In this document: positions 11,392 to 27,482 of the stretch, piece after piece
Layout of the letters: each line of letters begins with the position of its first letter
Position numbering within the stretch: position 1 is the first letter of the stretch
Source: an uncultured delta proteobacterium
Lineage (GTDB): Bacteria; Desulfobacterota; Syntrophia; Syntrophales; UBA2185
Direction of reading: 5' to 3'
NCBI GenBank assembly: GCA_963729715.1
Contig: CAVSPA010000005.1
Span: 288,001 to 352,000 of the forward strand
Length of the DNA: 64,000 nucleotides
Notes under the pieces: model-generated
The model's input: only the letters and a program-made list of their open reading frames with translations
What the model was told of the DNA's origin: nothing
The model's database searches: none
Translations under genes and position numbers: made by a program

Positions 11392-11486
11392 ATGAAACCA
11401 GCAACAGATGCCGGATCTCAGCAGTAAGAGTGAAGCTCCCCTTTTTTCACTTGCAAAATGACTTTTCTTTAAGGAGACTTTTTTCT

Positions 11487-13409
11487 ATGTCTCAAAAAAT
11501 ACCAGAATATCGTCGTAAGCTATTGATTTGTCTTCTTCTTACGTTGGTAGTGCTCGCTGCATTCTGGCAGGTTAGGAACAGCGATTTCGTCAATTTCGAT
11601 GACCCGAGGTGCACCACAGAAAACCTGCATATACAGGGCGGATTGAATCCGGAATTTCTGAAATGGGCCTTCACGACGAGTCATGCCGGCTACTGGCAGC
11701 CCCTTACCTGGTTGTCCTTCGCGATGGATTATCAGCTGTTCGGACTCAATGCAGGAGGATACCACATCGTCAATCTTCTCTTGCATATAGTCAACACCTT
11801 ATTGTTGTTTCTAATTTTCAACCGCATGACCCACGCTCTGTGGAAAAGCGCCTTTATGGCTGCTCTATTCGCCCTTCATCCCATCCATGTGGAGTCTGTG
11901 GCCTGGATAGCTGAGAGAAAGGATGTTCTCAGCGCCTTCTTCTGGATGCTCACGATGGGAGCTTATGTCCTCTATGCGGAGAAGCCGGGAGTGAGGAAAT
12001 ATCTGCTCACCATTGTATTGTTTTCCTTCGGACTCATGGTGAAGCCAATGCTGGTTAGTCTGCCATGTGTGCTGTTAGTACTCGATTACTGGCCGCTGGG
12101 CCGCCTTCGCTTCAATGACTCCCTTGATGTTCCAAAAATACCAGAATCAAAAAAAGAAAAGAAGAGTGCGAGAAAAATCTCAGCTTCAGCTAGAAGCAAA
12201 GAGGCCACGCTACCGGAGCAGTCACAGTTTTTACAAAGGTTATGGCCTGTCATACGAGAAAAAATCCCTTTCTTTGCCCTCTCGGCTATCTCAAGTATTG
12301 TGACTGCCATAGGGCAACAAAAGGCGGGGGCGATGGAATCTCTCGAAATACTTCCCATCGCCACACGAATCGGCAATGCCTTGATCTCTTATATACGTTA
12401 CATCGGAATGACCATATACCCGCACGGTCTGGCCGTGTTTTATCCATATAGGGGAACGATTTCACCATGGGAAGTCTTCCTTGCCGCTGCATTCTTATTA
12501 ATCGCAACCTTAATGATCTTTCGATGGGCAGCAAAGATGCCCTATCTTGTCATGGGATGGTTATGGTACCTGGGAACACTCGTTCCTGTAATCGGCATAA
12601 TACAGGTGGGAATGCAGTCTATGGCAGATCGATATACCTATATTCCGATAATCGGTCTTTTTGTGGCAACCACGTGGGCGGTACCTGATATCACAAGAAA
12701 TTGGCGTTATCGGCAATACATACTTTCCGCCGGAGCAGTAATTGTTTTATCAGCTTTAATGTTCTCAACCCGGATGCAGGTCAAGTACTGGCAAAACAGT
12801 ATCACTCTTTTTGAGCATGCCATTCAGGTTACGGATAATAATTATCTGGCGCACAACAACCTGGGGGTTGCTTTGAGCAGCACTGGAAAAAGAGAAGAAG
12901 CCATGGCGCAATATAGAGAGGCTATCAGAATAAAACCAAACTATGAAAATGCCATCTTCAATTTAGCAAATAACTTATCTGCACAAGGCAGGACTGATGA
13001 GGCTATTCTATGTTATCAAGAAGCTCTTAGGCTACGGCCAAATTATGCCAAGGCACATAACAATCTTGCAACACTGTTAATTTCAAAGAAGATGTTTAAG
13101 GAAGCAATTGGTCACTACCAGGAAGCACTCAAAACCGATCCAACAAATTCGGCTACGCACTATAACCTGGGAGCAGCCTGGCTGTCGATTGATCACTTTG
13201 AGGATGCCGTTGGTCAGTTCCAGGAAGCAGTAAGAATCAATCCCCGATTTAGTCAAGCTCACAACGCCTGGGGGATAGCCCTAGCCCGATCGGGGAAGAC
13301 TGCTGAGGCCATCAACCATTTCAGGGAGGCTCTACGAATAAAACCTAATTTTAGAGAAGCAAATGACAACCTGAGGGCAGCATTGGCGCAACAGAATATG
13401 CGTCGTTGA
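11487..13409 (+). CDS. TMTC-like GT-C membrane glycosyltransferase with C-terminal TPRs (paralog 1)
   Basis: NFDD, WQPLTW, HPIHVESVAWIAERKD, ADRYTY, then TPR repeats (AHNNLG); SD AAGGAG before ATG 11487. Confidence 0.85.
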   Translation: MSQKIPEYRRKLLICLLLTLVVLAAFWQVRNSDFVNFDDPRCTTENLHIQGGLNPEFLKWAFTTSHAGYWQPLTWLSFAMDYQLFGLNAGGYHIVNLLLHIVNTLLLFLIFNRMTHALWKSAFMAALFALHPIHVESVAWIAERKDVLSAFFWMLTMGAYVLYAEKPGVRKYLLTIVLFSFGLMVKPMLVSLPCVLLVLDYWPLGRLRFNDSLDVPKIPESKKEKKSARKISASARSKEATLPEQSQFLQRLWPVIREKIPFFALSAISSIVTAIGQQKAGAMESLEILPIATRIGNALISYIRYIGMTIYPHGLAVFYPYRGTISPWEVFLAAAFLLIATLMIFRWAAKMPYLVMGWLWYLGTLVPVIGIIQVGMQSMADRYTYIPIIGLFVATTWAVPDITRNWRYRQYILSAGAVIVLSALMFSTRMQVKYWQNSITLFEHAIQVTDNNYLAHNNLGVALSSTGKREEAMAQYREAIRIKPNYENAIFNLANNLSAQGRTDEAILCYQEALRLRPNYAKAHNNLATLLISKKMFKEAIGHYQEALKTDPTNSATHYNLGAAWLSIDHFEDAVGQFQEAVRINPRFSQAHNAWGIALARSGKTAEAINHFREALRIKPNFREANDNLRAALAQQNMRR

Positions 13410-18264: not shown

Positions 18265-19164
18265 TCAGCCCTCGGCCCGATTAAGGTACTCATTCCATCT
18301 GGTGTCAACCCACCTCTGGAGCTGCCTCAGTTGCTCAATGCTCATCTTCCGGAATCGCCCCTGTCTTTCCACGTAATTGATGACAGACAGCTTATTCCCT
18401 TTTTCCGCAAGTGTCTTACTTCTCCCGGTAAAGCGAAATTTGCCATCCTCAATCTCGAAGAGGACGACGATCCCCGTTTCTACGGCAAGCCTCCCGATAC
18501 GCACGGTGTCCTTGGGCGCATAACCCCATCCCGGCGGGCAGGGGACGGCGATCTGCACGTACCTCGCTCCCTTGATGCGCTTGGCCTTGACAAATTTATC
18601 GTACAGGTCAATCGGATAGGCCGATGAAGTGGTGGCGAGATAAGGTAGGTCGTGGGCTTCCATGATTCGCAGCATATCCTTCTTGGGTTGCTGCTTGGTG
18701 AGCACCGGCGTGGTAGAGGTCAATGCCCCCATGGGCGTGGCACTAGAGCGCTGTGTGCCCGTGTTCATATACCCCTCGTTGTCGTAGCATACATAGATGA
18801 AGTCCGTTCCTCTTTCGGCCGCCCCGCTCAGGGCCTGAATTCCCATGTCGAAAGTACCGCCGTCTCCGGCGATGGCCACGACAGTAATATCCGTGCGGTT
18901 CACAGCATTCAAGCCGGCGACAAGACCAGAAGCGGAGGCAGCCGTACTGGCGAATGTGCAATTGAGGGCGGGAATAGTCACGGATGTCGTCGGATACAGA
19001 CCGTGGAGAACTGTCAGGCAGCAGGCCGGAAATGTCACAATCGTATTTTCACGCAGTGCTTTTAGAACATAGCGATATGCGAGGGAGAGGCCGCAACCCT
19101 GGCAAGCTCTCTGCCCCGGGAGCATATACTCTTCAATATTAACCTTGAACAGGTTCTCTGGCAT
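18265..19164 (-). CDS. porB: 2-oxoacid:ferredoxin oxidoreductase beta subunit (POR/VOR type)
   Basis: ACQGCG, TPP motif GDGGTFD...YDNEGYMNTG, PCPPGW. Substrate not established. Confidence 0.93.
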   Translation of the reverse strand: MPENLFKVNIEEYMLPGQRACQGCGLSLAYRYVLKALRENTIVTFPACCLTVLHGLYPTTSVTIPALNCTFASTAASASGLVAGLNAVNRTDITVVAIAGDGGTFDMGIQALSGAAERGTDFIYVCYDNEGYMNTGTQRSSATPMGALTSTTPVLTKQQPKKDMLRIMEAHDLPYLATTSSAYPIDLYDKFVKAKRIKGARYVQIAVPCPPGWGYAPKDTVRIGRLAVETGIVVLFEIEDGKFRFTGRSKTLAEKGNKLSVINYVERQGRFRKMSIEQLRQLQRWVDTRWNEYLNRAEG

Positions 19165-19168
19165 ATTA

Positions 19169-20377
19169 TCACTCCGTAAAACAGTTTAGCCATTTCGGCG
19201 CAGGTTCCGTATCTCCAGCAGCGATTGCATCCCGTGATGACCGTACAGCCTCGGCGAGTTCCCTCGCCTTGACATCCCGACCCCCAAGGCCACAGATGTA
19301 ATTGTGGATAGGCAGTCGTATATCTGTCCCGTAAAAGGCCGCCTTGATTTCGGAACATAGCGCTCCTTCATACCCGTAACTGATCCCCTTTTCGAAGACG
19401 CAGATGGCCTTTGCCTTCCTGAAGGCCGCGCGGACATCTTCTTTCGGAAAGGGCCTGAAGACCCTGATTCCGATAACTCCGGCATTAAGCCCCTCTGACC
19501 TCAGCATATCCACGGCTGTGGTGGCTTCGCTTGCCACAGAACCCATCCCAACAAGTATCATCTCGGCGTCATCTGTCTTGTATTGCCATAGCATGCCGCC
19601 GCAATCTCTCCCGAAGGCACCGGCAAATTCACGGCTCGTGGAGACAATAACGTCGCGGGATTCAATGAGGGCCTTCTGAAGCTTGTATCGCATTTCCATA
19701 TAGCCGTCACACAGCACACCCTCTGTATTAGCCCTTCGCCATGGGAAAAGAACAGGGTTGATATTCATGGGAGCCTCCGGCGAGAGAATCGTGTGGGGTT
19801 TATAAGGGGGCAGGAAATCGGAGACAACCACAGCATCAGGGATATCCACAGGCATCATCGTATGAGACATGACAAAACCATCATAACAGATCATGACGGG
19901 CACATAAACCGACTCGGCAATCCGGTACGCCTGAATAATGGAATCAATAATCTCCTGGTTGTCCCGGCAGTAAATTTGTATCCAGCCTGTATCGCGCTGT
20001 GCGATGGAATCCTGCTGGTCGTTGAAGATCGTCCACGGAGCGCCCACTCCACGGTTGATGCAGCACAACACAATAGGCAGCCTTGCGCCGGCTGCCCAGT
20101 GTATCTGCTCATGCATGTAAAGCAGTCCCTGGGAGCTCGTGGAAGTGAAGACGCGTGCCCCCACAGTGGATGCCGATATACAAACCGCAAGAGCGGAATG
20201 CTCTGATTCAACGCGGATATATTCTGCCTTGAGTTCTCCGCCCTCAATCAACTGGGAAAGCATCTCTGTCACAGAGGTCTGCGGCGTAATGGGATAGGCC
20301 GCCACGACCTGAACATGGCTGAGCTTCGCCCCAAGAGCCGCGGCCTGGTTGCCCGTTATGATTTGCACTTCAGCCAT
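19169..20377 (-). CDS. porA: 2-oxoacid:ferredoxin oxidoreductase alpha subunit
   Basis: AAYPITPQT, ESEHSA, TSSQGL, RPFP, GLGGRD. Confidence 0.93.
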   Translation of the reverse strand: MAEVQIITGNQAAALGAKLSHVQVVAAYPITPQTSVTEMLSQLIEGGELKAEYIRVESEHSALAVCISASTVGARVFTSTSSQGLLYMHEQIHWAAGARLPIVLCCINRGVGAPWTIFNDQQDSIAQRDTGWIQIYCRDNQEIIDSIIQAYRIAESVYVPVMICYDGFVMSHTMMPVDIPDAVVVSDFLPPYKPHTILSPEAPMNINPVLFPWRRANTEGVLCDGYMEMRYKLQKALIESRDVIVSTSREFAGAFGRDCGGMLWQYKTDDAEMILVGMGSVASEATTAVDMLRSEGLNAGVIGIRVFRPFPKEDVRAAFRKAKAICVFEKGISYGYEGALCSEIKAAFYGTDIRLPIHNYICGLGGRDVKARELAEAVRSSRDAIAAGDTEPAPKWLNCFTE

Positions 20378-20663
20378 TCTTCTCCCCCTCGTTCACCATG
20401 GATATCGCTTTTCCGGGACACTCCTCAGCACATATGCCGCAACCTTTGCAGTATTCCAGATCAATTTCCAGGGGAATCGTCGCTTTGATTACTCCTTCCG
20501 GACAATAGAGCCAGCAGAGAAAGCAGGCAGCCTTTTTCTTAATGGAGGGGATACACTTTGAATGATCGCAAACGGGCCTCATGTCCCGCCAGTCCCCCGT
20601 CTTCCCCGCTTCTCCAACTGCCGGTGTGGCCATGGCGGAAATATTCGTGTCTCTTTTCTTCAC
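20370..20663 (-). CDS. porD: 2-oxoacid:ferredoxin oxidoreductase delta subunit (2[4Fe-4S])
   Basis: TGDWR..RP, CFLCWLYCP, YCKGCGICAEECP. Confidence 0.93.
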   Translation of the reverse strand: MKKRDTNISAMATPAVGEAGKTGDWRDMRPVCDHSKCIPSIKKKAACFLCWLYCPEGVIKATIPLEIDLEYCKGCGICAEECPGKAISMVNEGEKNG

Positions 20664-20665
20664 AA

Positions 20666-21241
20666 TTATTGTCCTCCATTGGCGGTTTTCATTATGGTCT
20701 GCGCAAATGCATCTCGCAGGGCGACGATATTGGCAGCAGAAACAGCGCTTGATAATTTAGCCTTCAATCCTTTTTCCATCGCATCAAGAGACACAAGGTT
20801 TGATACCCTGGCAAATGCCCCCAGCATCGTGGTGTTGACAATCGGCTTCCCCTCCCTTATGAGATGGTTTTTGAGGGCAATATTTCCCGCATCAACCGTG
20901 GCTATGCTGATCCTCACGTCAAAATTCAGTTCATCAGGCTTCAAGGGACTGTTGACAATGATAAGCCCCCCTTCTTTGAGCGTTGTCAGAATGTTTACGG
21001 CAGAAAGGAGAGATGAATCCAGAACAACAGATATATCTGCATACTCAATCTGCGAGACCATCCGGACAGGCTCTGACGAGATCCTGGTTGAAGCTGTCAA
21101 CGGGGCACCTCTTCTTTCCGGACCGAAGGTCGGTGCGGATGTGACCCCTTTGAATCCTTGAATATAAGCTGCTTCTGCCAAAATCTGCGCAGCGATGACA
21201 ACGCCCTGACCGCCTCTTCCGTGCCATATTATTTCATGCAT
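20666..21241 (-). CDS. porG: 2-oxoacid:ferredoxin oxidoreductase gamma subunit
   Basis: MHEIIWHGRGGQG, FGPERRGAP, NTTMLGA; start reassigned to 21241. Confidence 0.92.
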   Translation of the reverse strand: MHEIIWHGRGGQGVVIAAQILAEAAYIQGFKGVTSAPTFGPERRGAPLTASTRISSEPVRMVSQIEYADISVVLDSSLLSAVNILTTLKEGGLIIVNSPLKPDELNFDVRISIATVDAGNIALKNHLIREGKPIVNTTMLGAFARVSNLVSLDAMEKGLKAKLSSAVSAANIVALRDAFAQTIMKTANGGQ

Positions 21242-21389: not shown

Positions 21390-21430
21390 TTAAAATAAAA
21401 AGGCCATGGATTTTTTTACCCATGGCCTTT
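21390..21430 (-). terminator. Attenuator-type intrinsic terminator upstream of porG
   Basis: AAAGGCCATGG-N10-CCATGGCCTTT followed by TTATTTT on the minus strand. Confidence 0.85.
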
Positions 21431-21450
21431 AGGATGATATAAACGTACTA

Positions 21451-21567
21451 TTATCCTGTCCTAAAAACGACGGGTGACGCGGGTAGCCGCGCCAACAGAA
21501 GAGCGAGGAGGAGCAAGCGAGAATCGCACAAATAAAAAATCTCTCTTCTTATTGATCCAAAGGTCAT
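21451..21567 (-). CDS. Leucine-rich leader peptide (38 aa)
   Basis: MTFGSIRREIFYLCDSRLLLLALLLARLPASPVVFRTG*; stop lies 20 nt before the terminator. Confidence 0.65.
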   Translation of the reverse strand: MTFGSIRREIFYLCDSRLLLLALLLARLPASPVVFRTG

Positions 21568-21598
21568 TTTCAGGAAATCCTGTCCAAGGTTCGCGGAA

Positions 21599-21627
21599 AA
21601 CATAGAATAAATAACAGCAGATGTCAA
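21599..21627 (-). promoter_or_regulatory. sigma70-type promoter of the leader/por operon
   Basis: TTGACA-N17-TATGTT. Confidence 0.65.
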
Positions 21628-21649: not shown

Positions 21650-23377
21650 TCACCTGAATCCCTTCTTCACCGCCATAGCGTTTTTAAGGTTCTCCTGCGC
21701 TAATGCGTAATCCGGGTTGAGACGCAAAGCTTCCCGATAGTTGGCGATGGCCTCATCCAGCTTTCCCTGATAAAATAGCGCGTTTCCCAGATTGTTATGT
21801 GCCTTTGCATAGTCCGGACTGATGCGGATACTTTCACGAAACTGATTAATTGCTTCATCGAGTTTTCCTTGTGAAGCCAGCATTATGCCCAAATTGTAGT
21901 GTGCATCGGCCGGATTGTTGATACTGATAGCCTTCTGGAAGCGGGCAATAGCCTCTTCTCTTTTTCCCTGGAGGGCCAGAGCATAACCCAGGTTATTTTG
22001 CGCCCAGGCATTTGCAGATGTAACCTTTATGGCATGCTCATAAAGGATAATATTATTGCGCCAAAAACCAATCTGGACATACGTCATAATTACACAAGCG
22101 AAAAGAATCCCCACAGCGGCGGTAGTGAGTGCGATTCTTCGATGACGCCAACGATTGAGGAGTTCCGGAGCACCCCAGGCAATCACGATGAATATGCCGA
22201 TAAGTGGCACATAGGTATAGCGATCGGCCATAGACTGCAATCCCACCTGTACAAATCCAATGACGGGGACGAGAGTTCCCAGATACCACAACCACCCAAC
22301 TATAAGATAAGGAAACCGCCTAGCTGTTCGAATAGCCAAATAGGTTATAACCATTAGAACTAAAACGGCCGATATTGCCTGCCATGAGGAAAGCGCAACA
22401 CCGACATAAGGATAAAAGATGGAGAGCTTTACAGGCCACAGCATCTTTCCAATGTAGCTGACATAGGAAATCACCGCATTGGCAATGCGGAGGCCGAGGG
22501 GATACAACTCCATGGGTTTCACGATCCGATGCTGGGCGTAGACTGTTATGAAGCAGAAGAGTATGGTGATAGCAAAAAACGGTATCTTCTCTTTTAGTAA
22601 CGGCCGCATCTCCTGCCACAGGACATGCGATTCTATATTACCCTTGGTATGTACGGTATCCTTGCCGGGCCGCTGCTGCGACTTCTGCTTCTTCTTCGCG
22701 CGGCTTGCCGGCCCAGGTGTTGCGGCAGCATTACGGACACCCGCCGTAGCCATCTGGAGCCGCTTTAGGGGCCAGTAATCCAAAAGCAGCAGGACAACGG
22801 GCAAGGTGACCAACATAGGCTTGGACATGAGACCCAGCAGGAAGAATGCAAGGACAAATAGATACCTCTTATATCCGGGACGTTCCACATAGTAAGCGTA
22901 CGCCCCCATGGTGAACATCCAAAAAAGGGTGGAGAGGACATCCTTCCTTTCAGCGACCCAAGCGACAGATTCTACATGGAGGGGATGCAGCGCAAAAAGC
23001 CCTGCCACAAAGGCACTCTGCCAGAGGGCGTTTGTCATACGGTGGAGAATCAGGAAGAGCAAGAGAGTGTTGGCAATATGAAAGAAGAGGCTGACCAGAT
23101 GATGCGGCCCCGGTTTCAGTCCGAATACCTGACAGTCCAGCATGTGTGAAAGCCATGTAAGTGGGTGCCAATTATGGGCGTGCGGCTCGGAAAAGGCCCA
23201 GGCTATGCCCTTTAGAGTAATCCCGTCCTGTACATAACGGTTCTCTGTCACATAATCGTTATCATCGAACGATATGAACTCGTGGTTTCTGACCTGCCAG
23301 AAGACCGCGACGGTTGTCATTGACAGGGCAATGCAGACTGCCAATACTAAATAGTTTCTATTTATCTGACTTGTCAT
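21650..23377 (-). CDS. TMTC-like GT-C/TPR membrane protein (paralog 2)
   Basis: SFDD, WHPLTW, HPLHVESVAWVAERKD, ADRYTY, TPRs. Confidence 0.85.
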   Translation of the reverse strand: MTSQINRNYLVLAVCIALSMTTVAVFWQVRNHEFISFDDNDYVTENRYVQDGITLKGIAWAFSEPHAHNWHPLTWLSHMLDCQVFGLKPGPHHLVSLFFHIANTLLLFLILHRMTNALWQSAFVAGLFALHPLHVESVAWVAERKDVLSTLFWMFTMGAYAYYVERPGYKRYLFVLAFFLLGLMSKPMLVTLPVVLLLLDYWPLKRLQMATAGVRNAAATPGPASRAKKKQKSQQRPGKDTVHTKGNIESHVLWQEMRPLLKEKIPFFAITILFCFITVYAQHRIVKPMELYPLGLRIANAVISYVSYIGKMLWPVKLSIFYPYVGVALSSWQAISAVLVLMVITYLAIRTARRFPYLIVGWLWYLGTLVPVIGFVQVGLQSMADRYTYVPLIGIFIVIAWGAPELLNRWRHRRIALTTAAVGILFACVIMTYVQIGFWRNNIILYEHAIKVTSANAWAQNNLGYALALQGKREEAIARFQKAISINNPADAHYNLGIMLASQGKLDEAINQFRESIRISPDYAKAHNNLGNALFYQGKLDEAIANYREALRLNPDYALAQENLKNAMAVKKGFR

Positions 23378-23396
23378 CTTTCAGCCGTAATGAGAT

Positions 23397-25343
23397 TCAT
23401 TGCTTTCTATTATGCATCGCAAGGGCATTCTTCATGTTGTCCTTTGCCAGCTTGAAGTCGGGGTTAATTCGCAGGGCCGCACGGTAACTGTCAATGGCTC
23501 CGTCAATCTCCCCCTGCGAAAGCAAGGCACTTCCCAGATTGTTATGGGCATCTGCCAAATCAGGCTTGAGTCTGATGGCCTCCCGAAAGTGGGTGATGGC
23601 TTCGCCTTCTTTACCCAGTAGGGCCAGGACGTAACCGAGGTTATTTTGATATTCTGCAGAGCGAGGTTTAAGTCTCACAGCCTCCTTGAGTTGGACAACA
23701 GCTTCTGTCAAATTACCCCCGCGAGCCAAGGCATTACCCAAGTTATAATGTCCATTCGAGTGATCCGGATTGATCATCAAGGTTTCCTTGTAGTCTGCAA
23801 TGGCCCTTTTATAATCGCCCAGATTGACCCTTGCGTTTCCCCGATTGTAATAGGCATCATAAAACCGCGGGTTCAACTTAATCGCCTTATCGTAATACGT
23901 TAGCGCCTCGGACGCATTTCCCGCATCGGCCAGCGCCTTCCCATAATTGCTTAACGGCCTCGGTTTATTCGGAGATTTCTTCAGACAATCGGCCCAGAGG
24001 GTATAATCACTTTTCCAGACCTTATTGCGCTCATAGGTCAATACGGTGTTTGTTAAGATCAGTAAAAACAGCGCTCCCACTGAGACCTGCCTGTACCAAT
24101 CCCATATGAAGTAAAAGACCACTGCAGTCAGCACAAGAAAAAACCCAAAACCGGGTAGGTATGTCCGATGTTCAAATATGACATTCTGGGAAATCGGGAT
24201 AATACTTGATTCTACGGACAGGGTTAAAAAACCCCAGAATATCCCAAAGGAAATAAGCCGATACCTCCGGAAAAGCAGTATGCCGAGAACAAAAATCCCG
24301 GCCAGGGATAACAGGCCCAAGAGCGTATGCCATTCAAAAAAGCTATGCGAGATCGGATAATCATAATCCAGATTCTGATTTACGGGTAGTATGAATAGCC
24401 TCATATATGTCAGTATAACGCTAAACTGTGTGATGAGATATTCCCAAGCGGTTATGGGATAATCGTAGCCTTGGTGAAGAAGAGGCGGTATGGGGTTAAA
24501 TATCTCGAATGAGAAATTGAGGAAAAAAAGGACAATGAAAATCCCGAGGATGGTGATAGGAATCTGAATGCCCCTGTCTTTTAAATCGATCTTCCATGCA
24601 TCGGTCCTTATAAAGCTGAACTCGTACAAAACAAGGGCGAAGGGTAGTGTAAAAACGATCTCCTTGGTCAGCATCCCTAAGACCGCGCAAAATAGGGCGC
24701 CCGCATAGTAAAAGAAAACCTGTGTGCCTCTATTTCCCTCCCCAAGTCTGCCCTTCACATACAACGCCAGCGACAACAGATAAAACAGCGTGGCCAGTGA
24801 AGCCAGCCGTTGCACGATGTACGTGACCGATTGGGTTGCCAGGGGATGGGATACGAACAACAAGGCGGTAAATAGGGCCATTGCTCCTTTATGTCGGCTT
24901 ATCGGCTGAGCCCTCATTACAGGCGTTGCCATCGTCAGCAGTACGAGCCACCATACCAATATGGCATTGACAATATGTATCGCCAGATTAACGAGGTGGT
25001 ATCCCCACACATCAAGCCCATGAAAATAATAATTCAAGGCAAATGATAGATACCCTATGGGACGACTGGGGTAAAACCCCCACCAGGCTTGAACGTCGGA
25101 GAGATTCCGTACGGCGATATTCTCCTCAATGGTTGGGACATCATCAAAATGAAAAGAGCAATCAAACGAGTTGGAATACGCTGTTACGCCCACGAGACAA
25201 ATAAGCAGTATAGATATCAGAGTCCAGGGGACGCTTCTGTTCTTAACTTGTTCTTTTCCCTTACTGGGAAAATCACTTATCTTCTTTTTCGTAGTCTTCG
25301 ACGTCCGTCTATTACCCACGCTACCTCCGACGGTCTTTTTCAA
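23397..25343 (-). CDS. TMTC-like GT-C/TPR membrane protein (divergent paralog 3)
   Basis: HFDD, HPLATQSVTYIVQR, FEHRTYLP, TPRs. Confidence 0.85.
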   Translation of the reverse strand: MKKTVGGSVGNRRTSKTTKKKISDFPSKGKEQVKNRSVPWTLISILLICLVGVTAYSNSFDCSFHFDDVPTIEENIAVRNLSDVQAWWGFYPSRPIGYLSFALNYYFHGLDVWGYHLVNLAIHIVNAILVWWLVLLTMATPVMRAQPISRHKGAMALFTALLFVSHPLATQSVTYIVQRLASLATLFYLLSLALYVKGRLGEGNRGTQVFFYYAGALFCAVLGMLTKEIVFTLPFALVLYEFSFIRTDAWKIDLKDRGIQIPITILGIFIVLFFLNFSFEIFNPIPPLLHQGYDYPITAWEYLITQFSVILTYMRLFILPVNQNLDYDYPISHSFFEWHTLLGLLSLAGIFVLGILLFRRYRLISFGIFWGFLTLSVESSIIPISQNVIFEHRTYLPGFGFFLVLTAVVFYFIWDWYRQVSVGALFLLILTNTVLTYERNKVWKSDYTLWADCLKKSPNKPRPLSNYGKALADAGNASEALTYYDKAIKLNPRFYDAYYNRGNARVNLGDYKRAIADYKETLMINPDHSNGHYNLGNALARGGNLTEAVVQLKEAVRLKPRSAEYQNNLGYVLALLGKEGEAITHFREAIRLKPDLADAHNNLGSALLSQGEIDGAIDSYRAALRINPDFKLAKDNMKNALAMHNRKQ

Positions 25344-25523
25344 CGATAGAGAGAACTAATAAATACGCGATAGTTGAGCAAAACAACTGTGATGTCCAAC
25401 GAACTTACTCTAAAATGATGCCAGCAGGCAAGAATTACGAAAAGATCATGACGAACATTTAATTTTTTTGTCCACGTTCTTGAAACATCAAACCTCCGTT
25501 ATAAGCAGAGCAGTACACAAAGA

Positions 25524-27482
25524 TCATCTCTTCCTCCTCCGCTGAGCAAGAGCATCCTCGAGGTTTTTTTGTGCAAGCGCATAGTCCGGTTTGAGAAGTA
25601 ATGCTTGCTGAAAACTGCGAATGGCTTCATCAATCCCGCCCTGTAAAAACAAGGTGTGTCCCAGATTGTTGTATGCTTTTGCATAGTCCGGCTTGACGCG
25701 GATAGCTTCCCGAAAGTGATAAATGGCTCCACCGAAGTCACCGCGTGAGAGCAGCATAGTACCTACATTATAATGCACCTCCGCCGAAGCATCTGACATC
25801 ACCGAGCGCAAATCCGATTTGATCTCGAGTGCCTTGGAAAAAACTGCCATTGCTTCAGTGAATTTCCCTTGCGAAGCCAGGGCCTCTCCCAGATTTACAT
25901 AGGCTTTTATGTAATTCGGGTTAATCCGGATTGCCTCACCATAATGACTGATAGCTTCTTCGATACGGCCTTGTTCTTGCAGGGATATGCCGAGGTTATT
26001 GTTTTCCTCGTAGCAATTTGGACAAATCCGGACGGCTTCGGAATAATGATGGATGGCCTCTTCAAATTTTCCCTGCGTGAGCAAACTATGCCCCAAATTG
26101 CTGTGAGCAGTATAGTTATTTGTTGTCACGTCGATGGCATGTGTAAACAGGGTAATGCTGTTTTGCCAGTACTGCACCTGTTTCCAGGAAACGAATGAGA
26201 GGATGCAAATTATGATGACAGCAAGTGTTGCAAGAGCAGCATTCATATGTCGCCATTTCTTTATAAGCTCAGGCACTCCCCAGGCAACCATGATTAGAAT
26301 GCCGATAATGGGTACGTAGGTGTAACGGTCCGCCATGGCCTGCACGCCAACTTGGACAAGACCTATAACGGGAACCAGTGTCCCCAGATACCAGAGCCAC
26401 CCTGTCGTGAGATATGGGTAGCGCTTCGCGGTCCAAAGAATCAAGTACGTTGCAATGATAAGAAAGAGGACTGCCCCAATGATCTCCCAAGTCGGAAGCC
26501 TGCCGGGGTAAGGATAAAGAACCGCAAGATTTGCGGGCCAGACTATCTTCCCAATATAACTGCAGTAAGAGACAATGGCATTTGCAATGCGGGCGGACAA
26601 GGGATAGCTTTGTAGAGAACCCATCGCCCCGCTTTTCTGCTGCGCTATGTATGTCACTATACTAAGTGCCAGAGAAAGAACAAAGAATGGAACCTTTTCC
26701 AGTATAATATGGCCGATGGCAGGCTGTTGCTGGCTCTGCTTCGCGGTCTTGTCTGCCTGCTTTGGCTTCTGTCTATTCCTTACACGTTCCTTTTTCTTGC
26801 CTTGTGTGTTCAGAGATTCTTCAGATTGCGTGTGCTTATCTACTGACGGTTTCCCTATTGTCACGCGACGGAGGGGCCAGTAATCAAGAAGGAGCAGGAC
26901 AAAAGGAAGTGTGACTACCATGGGTTTGGCCATGAGGCCCAGGGAAAAGAAGAGAAGAGTGAGAAGATACCTCTTTAGCTCTCGCCTTTCAACATAGAAA
27001 GCATAAGCCCCCATGGTGAGCAGCCAAAAAAATGTGGAGAGGACGTCTTTGCGCTCGGCAACCCAGGCAACAGACTCCACATGGAGAGGATGAATGGCGA
27101 AGATAGCGGCTACAAAGGCGCTTTGCCACAGGAACTTCGTCATCCGGTGAAGTATGAGGAATAGCAAAAGCGAATTTGCGATATGAAAGAGAAGATTAAC
27201 GATGTGGTAGCCTGTCGGGTTCAGCCTGAACAAGTCGTAGTCCAGCATATAGGATACCCATGTAAGCGGATGCCAGTATCCTGTATAACTGGTCGTCAAT
27301 GCCCAGCGAATTCCCCCTGTCGTGATACCATTCTTTACATAACTGTTTTCCGTCACGTATTCATTATCATCGTAATTTGTGAAATCACAATGATTGACCT
27401 GCCAGTAAATGGCAAAGGCGGTAATCGCCAGAAAGACGCAGACGTATACTGTGCGGTGATTGTCACTTAATCTATTCATCAT
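25524..27482 (-). CDS. TMTC-like GT-C/TPR membrane protein (paralog 4)
   Basis: NYDD, WHPLTW, HPLHVESVAWVAERKD, ADRYTY, TPRs. Confidence 0.85.
   Translation of the reverse strand: MMNRLSDNHRTVYVCVFLAITAFAIYWQVNHCDFTNYDDNEYVTENSYVKNGITTGGIRWALTTSYTGYWHPLTWVSYMLDYDLFRLNPTGYHIVNLLFHIANSLLLFLILHRMTKFLWQSAFVAAIFAIHPLHVESVAWVAERKDVLSTFFWLLTMGAYAFYVERRELKRYLLTLLFFSLGLMAKPMVVTLPFVLLLLDYWPLRRVTIGKPSVDKHTQSEESLNTQGKKKERVRNRQKPKQADKTAKQSQQQPAIGHIILEKVPFFVLSLALSIVTYIAQQKSGAMGSLQSYPLSARIANAIVSYCSYIGKIVWPANLAVLYPYPGRLPTWEIIGAVLFLIIATYLILWTAKRYPYLTTGWLWYLGTLVPVIGLVQVGVQAMADRYTYVPIIGILIMVAWGVPELIKKWRHMNAALATLAVIIICILSFVSWKQVQYWQNSITLFTHAIDVTTNNYTAHSNLGHSLLTQGKFEEAIHHYSEAVRICPNCYEENNNLGISLQEQGRIEEAISHYGEAIRINPNYIKAYVNLGEALASQGKFTEAMAVFSKALEIKSDLRSVMSDASAEVHYNVGTMLLSRGDFGGAIYHFREAIRVKPDYAKAYNNLGHTLFLQGGIDEAIRSFQQALLLKPDYALAQKNLEDALAQRRRKR

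Follow-up and report, generated by a model that had tools for sequence, protein, structure and literature searches.

A conserved leucine attenuator before a ferredoxin oxidoreductase operon in Syntrophales, and a likely role of the enzyme in leucine synthesis

Why does a four-gene 2-oxoacid:ferredoxin oxidoreductase operon stand behind a short reading frame packed with leucine codons, and what would its enzyme contribute when leucine runs short? The operon lies in the window, by which we mean the whole stretch of 64,000 nucleotides analyzed here; coordinates without further label refer to it. The source genome (G000, 3.76 Mb; labels beginning with G, C, and L denote sampled genomes, contigs, and loci) is that of a Syntrophales bacterium, and the nearest public relatives of the beta subunit carry the labels Syntrophaceae or Syntrophales.

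Layout of the leader

An earlier note on this DNA had described a TTGACA-N17-TATGTT promoter, a 38-codon open reading frame (ORF) with 7 Leu in 8 codons, an 11-bp hairpin with a T tract 20 nt beyond the ORF, and then gamma-delta-alpha-beta genes. All of these were found where the note had placed them, and the folding of alternative structures adds further elements:

21599..21627, minus strand: predicted sigma-70-type promoter (-35 at 21627-21622, -10 at 21604-21599, 17-nt spacer, 10/12 consensus matches)
21563..21575, minus strand: 5' strand of a possible protector helix in the start-codon region (partner 21471-21459; 13 pairs, -12.6 kcal/mol)
21451..21567, minus strand: leader ORF of 38 codons (ATG at 21567, stop ending at 21451), conserved in 28/30 orthologous loci
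21493..21516, minus strand: control codons, 7 Leu in 8 codons, from the reading of the leader ORF
21475..21494, minus strand: small hairpin directly after the Leu run, a possible pause hairpin (from fold and alignment)
21459..21474, minus strand: antiterminator 5' strand, made of the last codons of the leader ORF (pairs with 21434-21419)
21419..21434, minus strand: antiterminator 3' strand, with the terminator's 5' arm inside it (pairs with 21474-21459)
21392..21430, minus strand: intrinsic terminator hairpin (21430-21399) and U tract (to 21392)

The terminator has 11 Watson-Crick pairs (13 counting G-U) and lies 20 nt past the leader stop, and the -35 hexamer is at the same place in the orthologues displayed. 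As a possible antiterminator, the note had proposed the pairing of TTTAGGA with TCCTAAA. This pairing forms only the outer part of a longer antiterminator, in which 21474-21459 and 21434-21419 make 15/16 pairs and cover the whole 5' arm of the terminator. The folding energy of this segment is -21.5 kcal/mol (z = -4.0).

Taken in isolation, the promoter-like and terminator-like matches occur at or near shuffle level, and the case for an attenuator therefore rests on conservation. No T-box or other known Rfam riboregulator was found; the Rfam search of the leader returned 8 weak matches, none of them near the gathering score and none a T-box. In the spacer between the terminator and the gamma gene (21390-21242), the repeat search called no repeat; in relatives, this spacer measures about 50 to 290 nt and often contains a palindromic repeat-like insert.

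Conservation, kinship with the leuA leader, and predicted switching

Throughout the 3.76-Mb genome, only one ATG-started short ORF with 6 or more Leu among 8 codons is followed by a terminator, namely the window leader. A scan for any amino-acid run ORF with a terminator gave six rows, i.e., the Leu leader, one Val-rich and one Ile-rich leader, and three unconvincing cases. The genome leader scan considered ATG starts only and therefore missed a second Leu leader, homologous to the first and starting with GTG, upstream of leuA-leuC-leuD.

Leu runs before orthologous operons, to which the earlier note had pointed as a check on its reading, proved to be conserved. Gamma orthologues (57-100% identity, with paralogues well apart near 40%) are present in 30/41 genomes, and a leader with a terminator precedes 28 of these 30 loci, the window being counted as one of them. 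At least 5 Leu in 10 codons occur in 26 of the 28 leaders. One of the two exceptions has 28 nt of upstream DNA, and the other (G024) has no leader. Homologous leaders are equally frequent at leuA (28/30 loci). Since leuA carries a homologous leader, the window leader can be identified as a leucine attenuator.

We aligned 24 operon leaders with 17 leuA leaders, and the following pairing and covariation figures are inflated by the relatedness of the genomes. For the antiterminator, 92.4% of cells are paired and 16 cells are changed on both sides, which 0/500 shuffles reach, and slid controls give 46-63%; for the terminator, 99.3% of cells are paired, with both-side changes at 4 pairs. The possible protector helix, whose role is uncertain, is present in the minimum-energy fold and paired in 81% of alignment cells. 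In the possible pause hairpin, 6/6 pairs are changed on both sides, but pairing reaches just 68% of cells when the two leader types are taken together.

Over 79 leaders, the Leu run is confined to a single frame, with 7.9 and 7.4 Leu per 16 codons for the two types and about 1 in the other frames. The best-frame mean is 8.1 Leu per 16 codons vs 3.6 after shuffling, and all six Leu codons are used. The antiterminator strand falls in one reading frame in operon-type leaders and in another in leuA-type leaders, yet both types keep the Leu run in frame. With a covariance model, 62 matches at an E value of about 1e-12 or better were obtained in the 41 genomes, 41 of them training rows, and each lies before leuA or the oxidoreductase operon. 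Among these 62 strong matches, no third gene type (ligase, branched-chain aminotransferase [BCAT], or transporter) was found under a Leu leader. A group of 16 inspected matches comprised one leuA start and, for the rest, other attenuators or plain terminators. Altogether, order-wide conservation and homology with the leuA leader strongly support leucine attenuation, in line with the earlier note, which had matched this layout to ribosome-mediated attenuators, and we are nearly certain that the attenuator is real.

To describe how it might switch, we folded the nascent RNA of 54 leaders (one wrong-strand row of 55 having been dropped) under a 15-nt ribosome footprint. With the ribosome stalled on Leu, the antiterminator holds the 5' arm of the terminator (P > 0.5) in 52/54 leaders; with the ribosome at the stop codon it does so in 0/54, a zero that is partly built into the simulation. 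At equilibrium, the terminator wins in most full leaders even when the ribosome is held at the Leu codons, and in the window leader it is favored over the antiterminator at -17.5 vs -16.5 kcal/mol. Consequently, the switch must be kinetic and co-transcriptional. In untranslated leaders at equilibrium, the antiterminator still wins in 42/54, though the protector helix can form.

In vivo, we would expect the following sequence of events. When leucine is plentiful, the ribosome would reach the leader stop and cover the 5' strand of the antiterminator, so that the terminator would form. When leucine is short, the ribosome would stall at the Leu codons, still 18 nt short of that strand, leaving the antiterminator to capture the emerging 5' arm of the terminator, and the four genes would be transcribed. 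The signal would be charged tRNA-Leu, as in a classical ribosome-stalling attenuator.

The enterobacterial leu operon has such an attenuator, leuL, before leuABCD. Like leuL and the Syntrophales leuA leader, the window leader combines a short Leu-run ORF, a mutually exclusive antiterminator and terminator, and a stop codon placed over the antiterminator; unlike leuL, it controls a ferredoxin-dependent oxidoreductase and belongs to no Rfam family above the gathering score. It shares direct sequence homology with the leuA leader of the same genome, from which it differs in the frame in which the ORF tail is read.

The enzyme and its distribution against leuA

The four genes behind the leader are as follows:

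20666..21241, minus strand: 2-oxoacid:ferredoxin oxidoreductase, gamma subunit (TIGR02175, 178 bits, cut-off 81)
20370..20663, minus strand: delta subunit, ferredoxin-type (TIGR02179, 88 bits, cut-off 60)
19169..20377, minus strand: alpha subunit (NF040682 PorA, 446 bits, cut-off 550; VorA, 385 bits, cut-off 646)
18265..19164, minus strand: beta subunit, TPP-binding, the last gene (NF008818 VorB, 364 bits; NF008819 PorB, 341 bits; both cut-offs 405)

A convergent waaA-like gene closes the unit after beta, and the operon contains no acyl-CoA ligase or BCAT. Upstream of the promoter (21650-27482, minus strand) lie genes for three membrane proteins in tandem, each bearing TPR repeats at the C terminus, and a fourth copy is found at 11430-13409 on the plus strand.

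Membership in the four-subunit family of 2-oxoacid:ferredoxin oxidoreductases (OFORs) follows from the gamma and delta scores and from the TPP, YPITP, and Fe-S motifs. Alpha and beta miss the cut-offs of both named types, as the listed scores show, and VorD is missed at 77/166. The public label of the clade is pyruvate ferredoxin oxidoreductase. Alpha scores best with PorA, its nearest solved chain is 9BT4_B, and it keeps the YPITP motif and the Arg. Beta has a PAC-C motif in common with a VorB-passing paralogue, where pyruvate enzymes have TGC-EV, and its loop beside the proximal cluster resembles the same paralogue. In a tree of 36 rows, which holds paralogues and relatives only, no characterized VOR or POR, and long outgroup rows, the clade groups with VorB-like paralogues, and PorB and the oxalate enzyme fall elsewhere (support 99/97). 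As clues to the substrate, the VorB-like loop motif and the tree position are weak. The clade also has an active-site loop sequence of its own and a 20-residue alpha region or insertion unlike that of the paralogues.

OFORs are reversible, and the Thermococcales VOR serves peptide catabolism. Like VOR (NF006232, NF008818, NF007202), the enzyme has a four-subunit layout with beta and active-site loop nearer VorB than PorB; unlike VOR, it scores below all VOR cut-offs, has its own gamma gene and the 20-residue alpha region, and is presumably anabolic and Leu-controlled. The four-subunit PFOR of Methanosarcina acetivorans (PDB 9BT4; NF040682, NF008819) is the closest solved structure by sequence and shares the YPITP, Arg, Asn, and TPP motifs. 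Differences from that enzyme are the scores below the PorA and PorB cut-offs, the loop near the proximal cluster, the FEN motif, and the presence of a separate PorB-passing enzyme in the genome.

Indeed, G000 has other OFORs, of which one passes PorB (434), one passes VorB, and one is an oxalate oxidoreductase; three other VorB-like enzymes occur, none among the strong leader matches. The PorB-passing four-gene operon (G000:C7:345000-351200, L323) is followed by three genes that, on visual inspection, resemble NuoE, NuoF, and a short NuoG, the alpha subunit of the oxalate oxidoreductase operon (G000:C5:373650-376930, L324) passes NF045791, and in two VorB-like operons (G000:C6:86670-88412 and C4:177351-179093) a 581-aa second subunit replaces the small delta.

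How the enzyme relates to the standard leucine pathway can be seen from the host and its order. An absence of leuABCD from the host genome is refuted, since leuA-leuC-leuD lie at C7:102638-106005 and leuB at C7:93851. LeuA, LeuB, LeuC, and CimA are over NCBIfam cut-offs; leuB is an NF002898 member and is for this reason missed by TIGR00169. The biosynthetic route suggested by the earlier note, which had named leuABCD as a check, keeps its support, with the amendment that it would be a second route in the host and not the sole one. In the host, the oxidoreductase would parallel LeuA-D, and in many relatives it would be the sole visible route to leucine.

Among 141 genomes of the order with at least 90% completeness, 54 have both leuA and the enzyme, 39 the enzyme only, 43 leuA only (i.e., without the Syntrophales enzyme clade, not without every homologue), and 5 neither, vs 15 expected (Fisher P 1e-4, a value overstated by kinship). 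The leader is present in 38/39 of the leuA-less genomes that carry the enzyme, as one strong copy each (37 directly before the operon, 1 at a contig end), and all 30 leaders fetched from leuA-less genomes hold 5-8 Leu in 10 codons. The sole exception among the 39 is G126, which, like G024, has the oxidoreductase without the leader. Most enzyme-only genomes (35/39) retain ilvD.

The best HMGL-like scores in leuA-less genomes are at most 180 bits vs 315-332 for LeuA. Long LeuA-like candidates number 35 (in 35 of the 39 genomes), and 34 of them are CimA, with 66-74% identity to G000 CimA and 26-31% to LeuA. CimA is unlikely to replace LeuA, since CimA genes carry Ile leaders (32 of 34 in leuA-less genomes). 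In G025, cimA, leuC, and a leuB-like gene are clustered behind an Ile leader, and the oxidoreductase keeps its 8-Leu leader.

Several genomes deserve separate mention. No leuA or leuC was found in G022 and G027; G022 has the enzyme with its leader, and leuA, leuB, leuC, HMG-CoA lyase, and the MCC marker (described below) were not found in it. G032 was rejected as leuA-less, since its leuA starts at a contig end, which shows that assembly gaps can mimic leuA loss. Among the five genomes with neither route, G114 carries a beta gene with 85% identity, and in G120 two leaders of the operon type stand at contig ends; in the other three (G045, G080, G103), neither leuA nor the enzyme was found. Two gamma or operon-type leader copies occur in G001 (C9/C185), G018 (C465/C542), and G120 (C79/C48), through duplication or contamination.

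On more distant homologues, the leader model matched 1/40 loci, itself Syntrophales, and on 20 further loci it matched 0/20, where some loci were short and 8 of the 20 had no gamma found, so that their upstream DNA lay outside the scan. No T-box was found before distant homologues in 26 loci, and beta homologues at 52-68% (Desulfomonilaceae, Dehalococcoidia, and others) showed no leader of the Syntrophales family. The wider enzyme family is therefore not tied to leucine, and in the DNA searched the leader occurs in Syntrophales only. At the corresponding position after hflX, family f15 carries a homologue of 52% identity that lacks a leader, and leuA occurs in 13/13 sampled f15 genomes. A likely history, as read from these sequences, is that a copy of the leuA leader was placed before an existing operon and that either route was then lost repeatedly. 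In a closed 2.1-Mb genome of another order (G252:C1:2071801-2074830, L367), an operon without a leader falls within the Syntrophales clade at the end of a long branch, a possible transfer. In families f61, f97, and f111 (L368-L374, L376), a beta homologue at 63-68% occurs, and the 12 kb fetched contain no match to gamma.

Probable function and the supply of isovaleryl-CoA

Leucine control outlasts the loss of LeuA, which implies that the enzyme acts at or after 2-oxoisocaproate; for an OFOR acting there, pathway chemistry points to the carboxylation of isovaleryl-CoA. We therefore consider it likely, for the chain as a whole, that the operon encodes a 2-oxoisocaproate synthase (isovaleryl-CoA + CO2) induced by leucine starvation. 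The enzyme would run reductively, from isovaleryl-CoA, CO2, and reduced ferredoxin to 2-oxoisocaproate, which IlvE would transaminate to leucine. The isovaleryl-CoA would derive from isovalerate that the organism imports and activates through its isovalerate pathway. We infer substrate, direction, and electron donor; Rnf was rejected as the electron source, RnfC being found in 0/5 genomes. As evidence on function, the distribution across genomes is stronger than motif or tree.

Candidates for the supply lie elsewhere in G000, outside the operon, and their specificity is putative. A cluster at G000:C7:443529-455607 (L320) contains a short-chain fatty acid transporter, CoA transferases, an MCC-beta-like carboxyltransferase, a hydratase, HMG-CoA lyase, and a dehydrogenase that has isovaleryl-CoA dehydrogenases as its closest solved relatives; no biotin carboxylase was seen beside the carboxyltransferase. 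Two of its genes are tandem HMGL-like genes, one of which passes HMG-CoA lyase, and the other, of 392 aa, has no NCBIfam match at 1e-60. A BCAT-like gene is present in 40/41 genomes, and the G000 copy passes the IlvE cut-offs. The MCC-beta-like marker occurs in 35/39 enzyme-only genomes, 35/54 with both routes, 8/43 leuA-only, and 5/5 with neither, i.e., in 70/93 genomes with the enzyme vs 13/48 without it, and in 40/44 leuA-less genomes. This pattern fits isovalerate users that diverted isovaleryl-CoA to leucine and then lost leuA, and it fits catabolism equally. G022, without the marker, would need plain salvage.

It is quite unlikely that leuA-less Syntrophales also run the isovalerate pathway backwards and make leucine from acetyl-CoA without an isopropylmalate step. 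HMG-CoA would then be converted to 3-methylglutaconyl-CoA, which would be decarboxylated and reduced to isovaleryl-CoA, and the oxidoreductase would fix CO2. Pure salvage does not need the marker found in 40/44 leuA-less genomes, and the second HMGL-like enzyme could make the C-C bond; against this, HMG-CoA synthase was not found in 5/5 genomes, the CoA transferase keeps its catalytic Glu, the isovalerate cluster has no Leu leader, and G022 lacks the cluster. The myxobacterial de novo route to isovaleryl-CoA is rejected on the first two of these grounds, the retained Glu showing that the CoA transferase is not an AibAB-type decarboxylase.

The alternative that survives best, although we judge it unlikely, is that the enzyme is Leu-attenuated and supplies an upstream precursor, either pyruvate from acetyl-CoA or 2-oxoisovalerate from isobutyryl-CoA. 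It would account for an alpha subunit nearest the PorA models and the M. acetivorans PFOR and for the 54/141 genomes with both routes, and a PFOR feeds branched-chain synthesis in Rhodospirillum according to section 6.2 of PMC13768988, in which paper "attenuat" does not occur. No PorB over cut-off was found in G027 and G072, where the enzyme may have a pyruvate role. What this alternative does not provide is a reason for leucine control after leuA loss, and the leader remains in 38/39 leuA-less enzyme carriers. In addition, the retention of ilvD in 35/39, the PorB-type enzyme that G000 has of its own, and a leader without a Val or Ile run all argue against a precursor role. Retention of the leader without leuA, co-occurrence with the isovalerate marker, and the separate PorB-type enzyme likewise support the earlier proposal that the enzyme would be biosynthetic rather than a plain pyruvate oxidoreductase.

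We hold it very unlikely that the enzyme is catabolic, converting 2-oxoisocaproate to isovaleryl-CoA for the isovalerate pathway, with a leader that is opposite in sign or incidental. The co-occurrence with MCC-beta (70/93 vs 13/48) would fit as well, and so would the reversibility of OFORs and the catabolic VOR of Thermococcales. Yet the leader is of the family and geometry found before leuA, where stalling must turn genes on, and stalling favors the antiterminator in our folds. The complementary distribution with leuA would also be left unexplained, and none of the three other VorB-like enzymes of G000 has a strong leader match.

Two further readings are highly improbable. Were the leader an accidental leuA duplicate carried along, with leuA-less members importing leucine or peptides, then the leaderless syntenic homologues of f15, the leaderless operons of G024 and G126, and the three genomes with neither route would be readily understood, whereas Leu codons, frame, and both helices are retained across many families while spacers diverge, Smithella-type leaders of different sequence keep 7-8 Leu in 10 codons, and G030, G036, and G039 have the leader before the operon and none upstream of leuC. 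The own active-site loop, the alpha insertion, and the failure to pass any characterized-family cut-off might suggest a Leu-induced, biosynthetic enzyme for another acyl-CoA or product linked to leucine shortage, but no other 2-oxoacid would offset leuA loss, and the isovalerate-marker association points to isovaleryl-CoA.

The proposed synthesis of 2-oxoisocaproate has precedent in its chemistry. Rumen bacteria and methanogens carboxylate isovalerate or draw on it for leucine synthesis, according to passages of PMC7356843 and PMC10658910 that cite Allison 1962 and 1966, Whitman 1982, and Shieh 1988 for this route. The chemistry proposed here is the same; what differs is the setting in Syntrophales, a named gene candidate (those passages name no genes), ribosome-mediated control, and the apparent replacement of leuA. 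An uncultivated member of Syntrophaceae has been proposed to degrade branched fatty acids (PMC5017805), and term look-ups in PMC2965389 and PMC4833913 returned nothing relevant. A literature search covering the main text of papers found no description of an attenuator before an OFOR or of this route in Syntrophales. Both the type of switch and the chemistry are of known kinds; we found no description of their combination or of leuA being apparently replaced across an order.

Leaders of leuA in delta-proteobacteria, or oxidoreductases under T-box control, may be covered by the comparative attenuator and T-box surveys of Vitreschak and colleagues, Lopatovskaya and colleagues, and Gutierrez-Preciado and colleagues.

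If the proposal is right, it offers a testable gene set for leucine synthesis by reductive isovalerate carboxylation, a route long known from labeling. Syntrophales are central to methanogenic sediments and digesters, and about a quarter of the sampled members (39/141) would depend on isovalerate from amino-acid fermenters and would not be leucine auxotrophs, which would bear on the difficulty of culturing them. A clade labeled "pyruvate" would be re-annotated as a candidate enzyme that forms a C-C bond by fixing CO2 on a branched C5 acyl-CoA, and the locus would illustrate clearly how a regulatory leader can be copied to a second pathway, with subsequent loss of the first.

Attenuators are in use elsewhere in these genomes, and G000 has Val, Ile, and Phe/Tyr types as well. 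A conserved 31-codon leader with a terminator and no obvious amino-acid run precedes a DapA-like gene at G003:C7:73863-73954 (L162) and in G032:C478 (L156). At G000:C6:210919-211092 (L164), a Phe/Tyr/Trp-rich leader with a terminator stands before a gene that we take, from its sequence, to be DAHP-synthase-like (with loci L157, L158, L163, L166, L169, and L161 in the same group), and in G020 such a leader precedes a chorismate-mutase-like gene. A terminator-bearing leader that contains three Trp codons (G026:C15:46780-46824, L165) lies before a 453-aa gene, presumably TrpB2-like. The Ile-rich attenuator leaders of cimA, in 32/34 Syntrophales loci, are those of L327-L361, and the G025 cluster is in L152 at about 12200-12700. 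Finally, at G000:C5:665220-673000, two tandem ilvBN pairs lie ahead of ilvC-ilvD. A Val-rich leader precedes the first pair and an Ile-rich leader the second, and both leaders have a promoter-like site and a terminator of their own.
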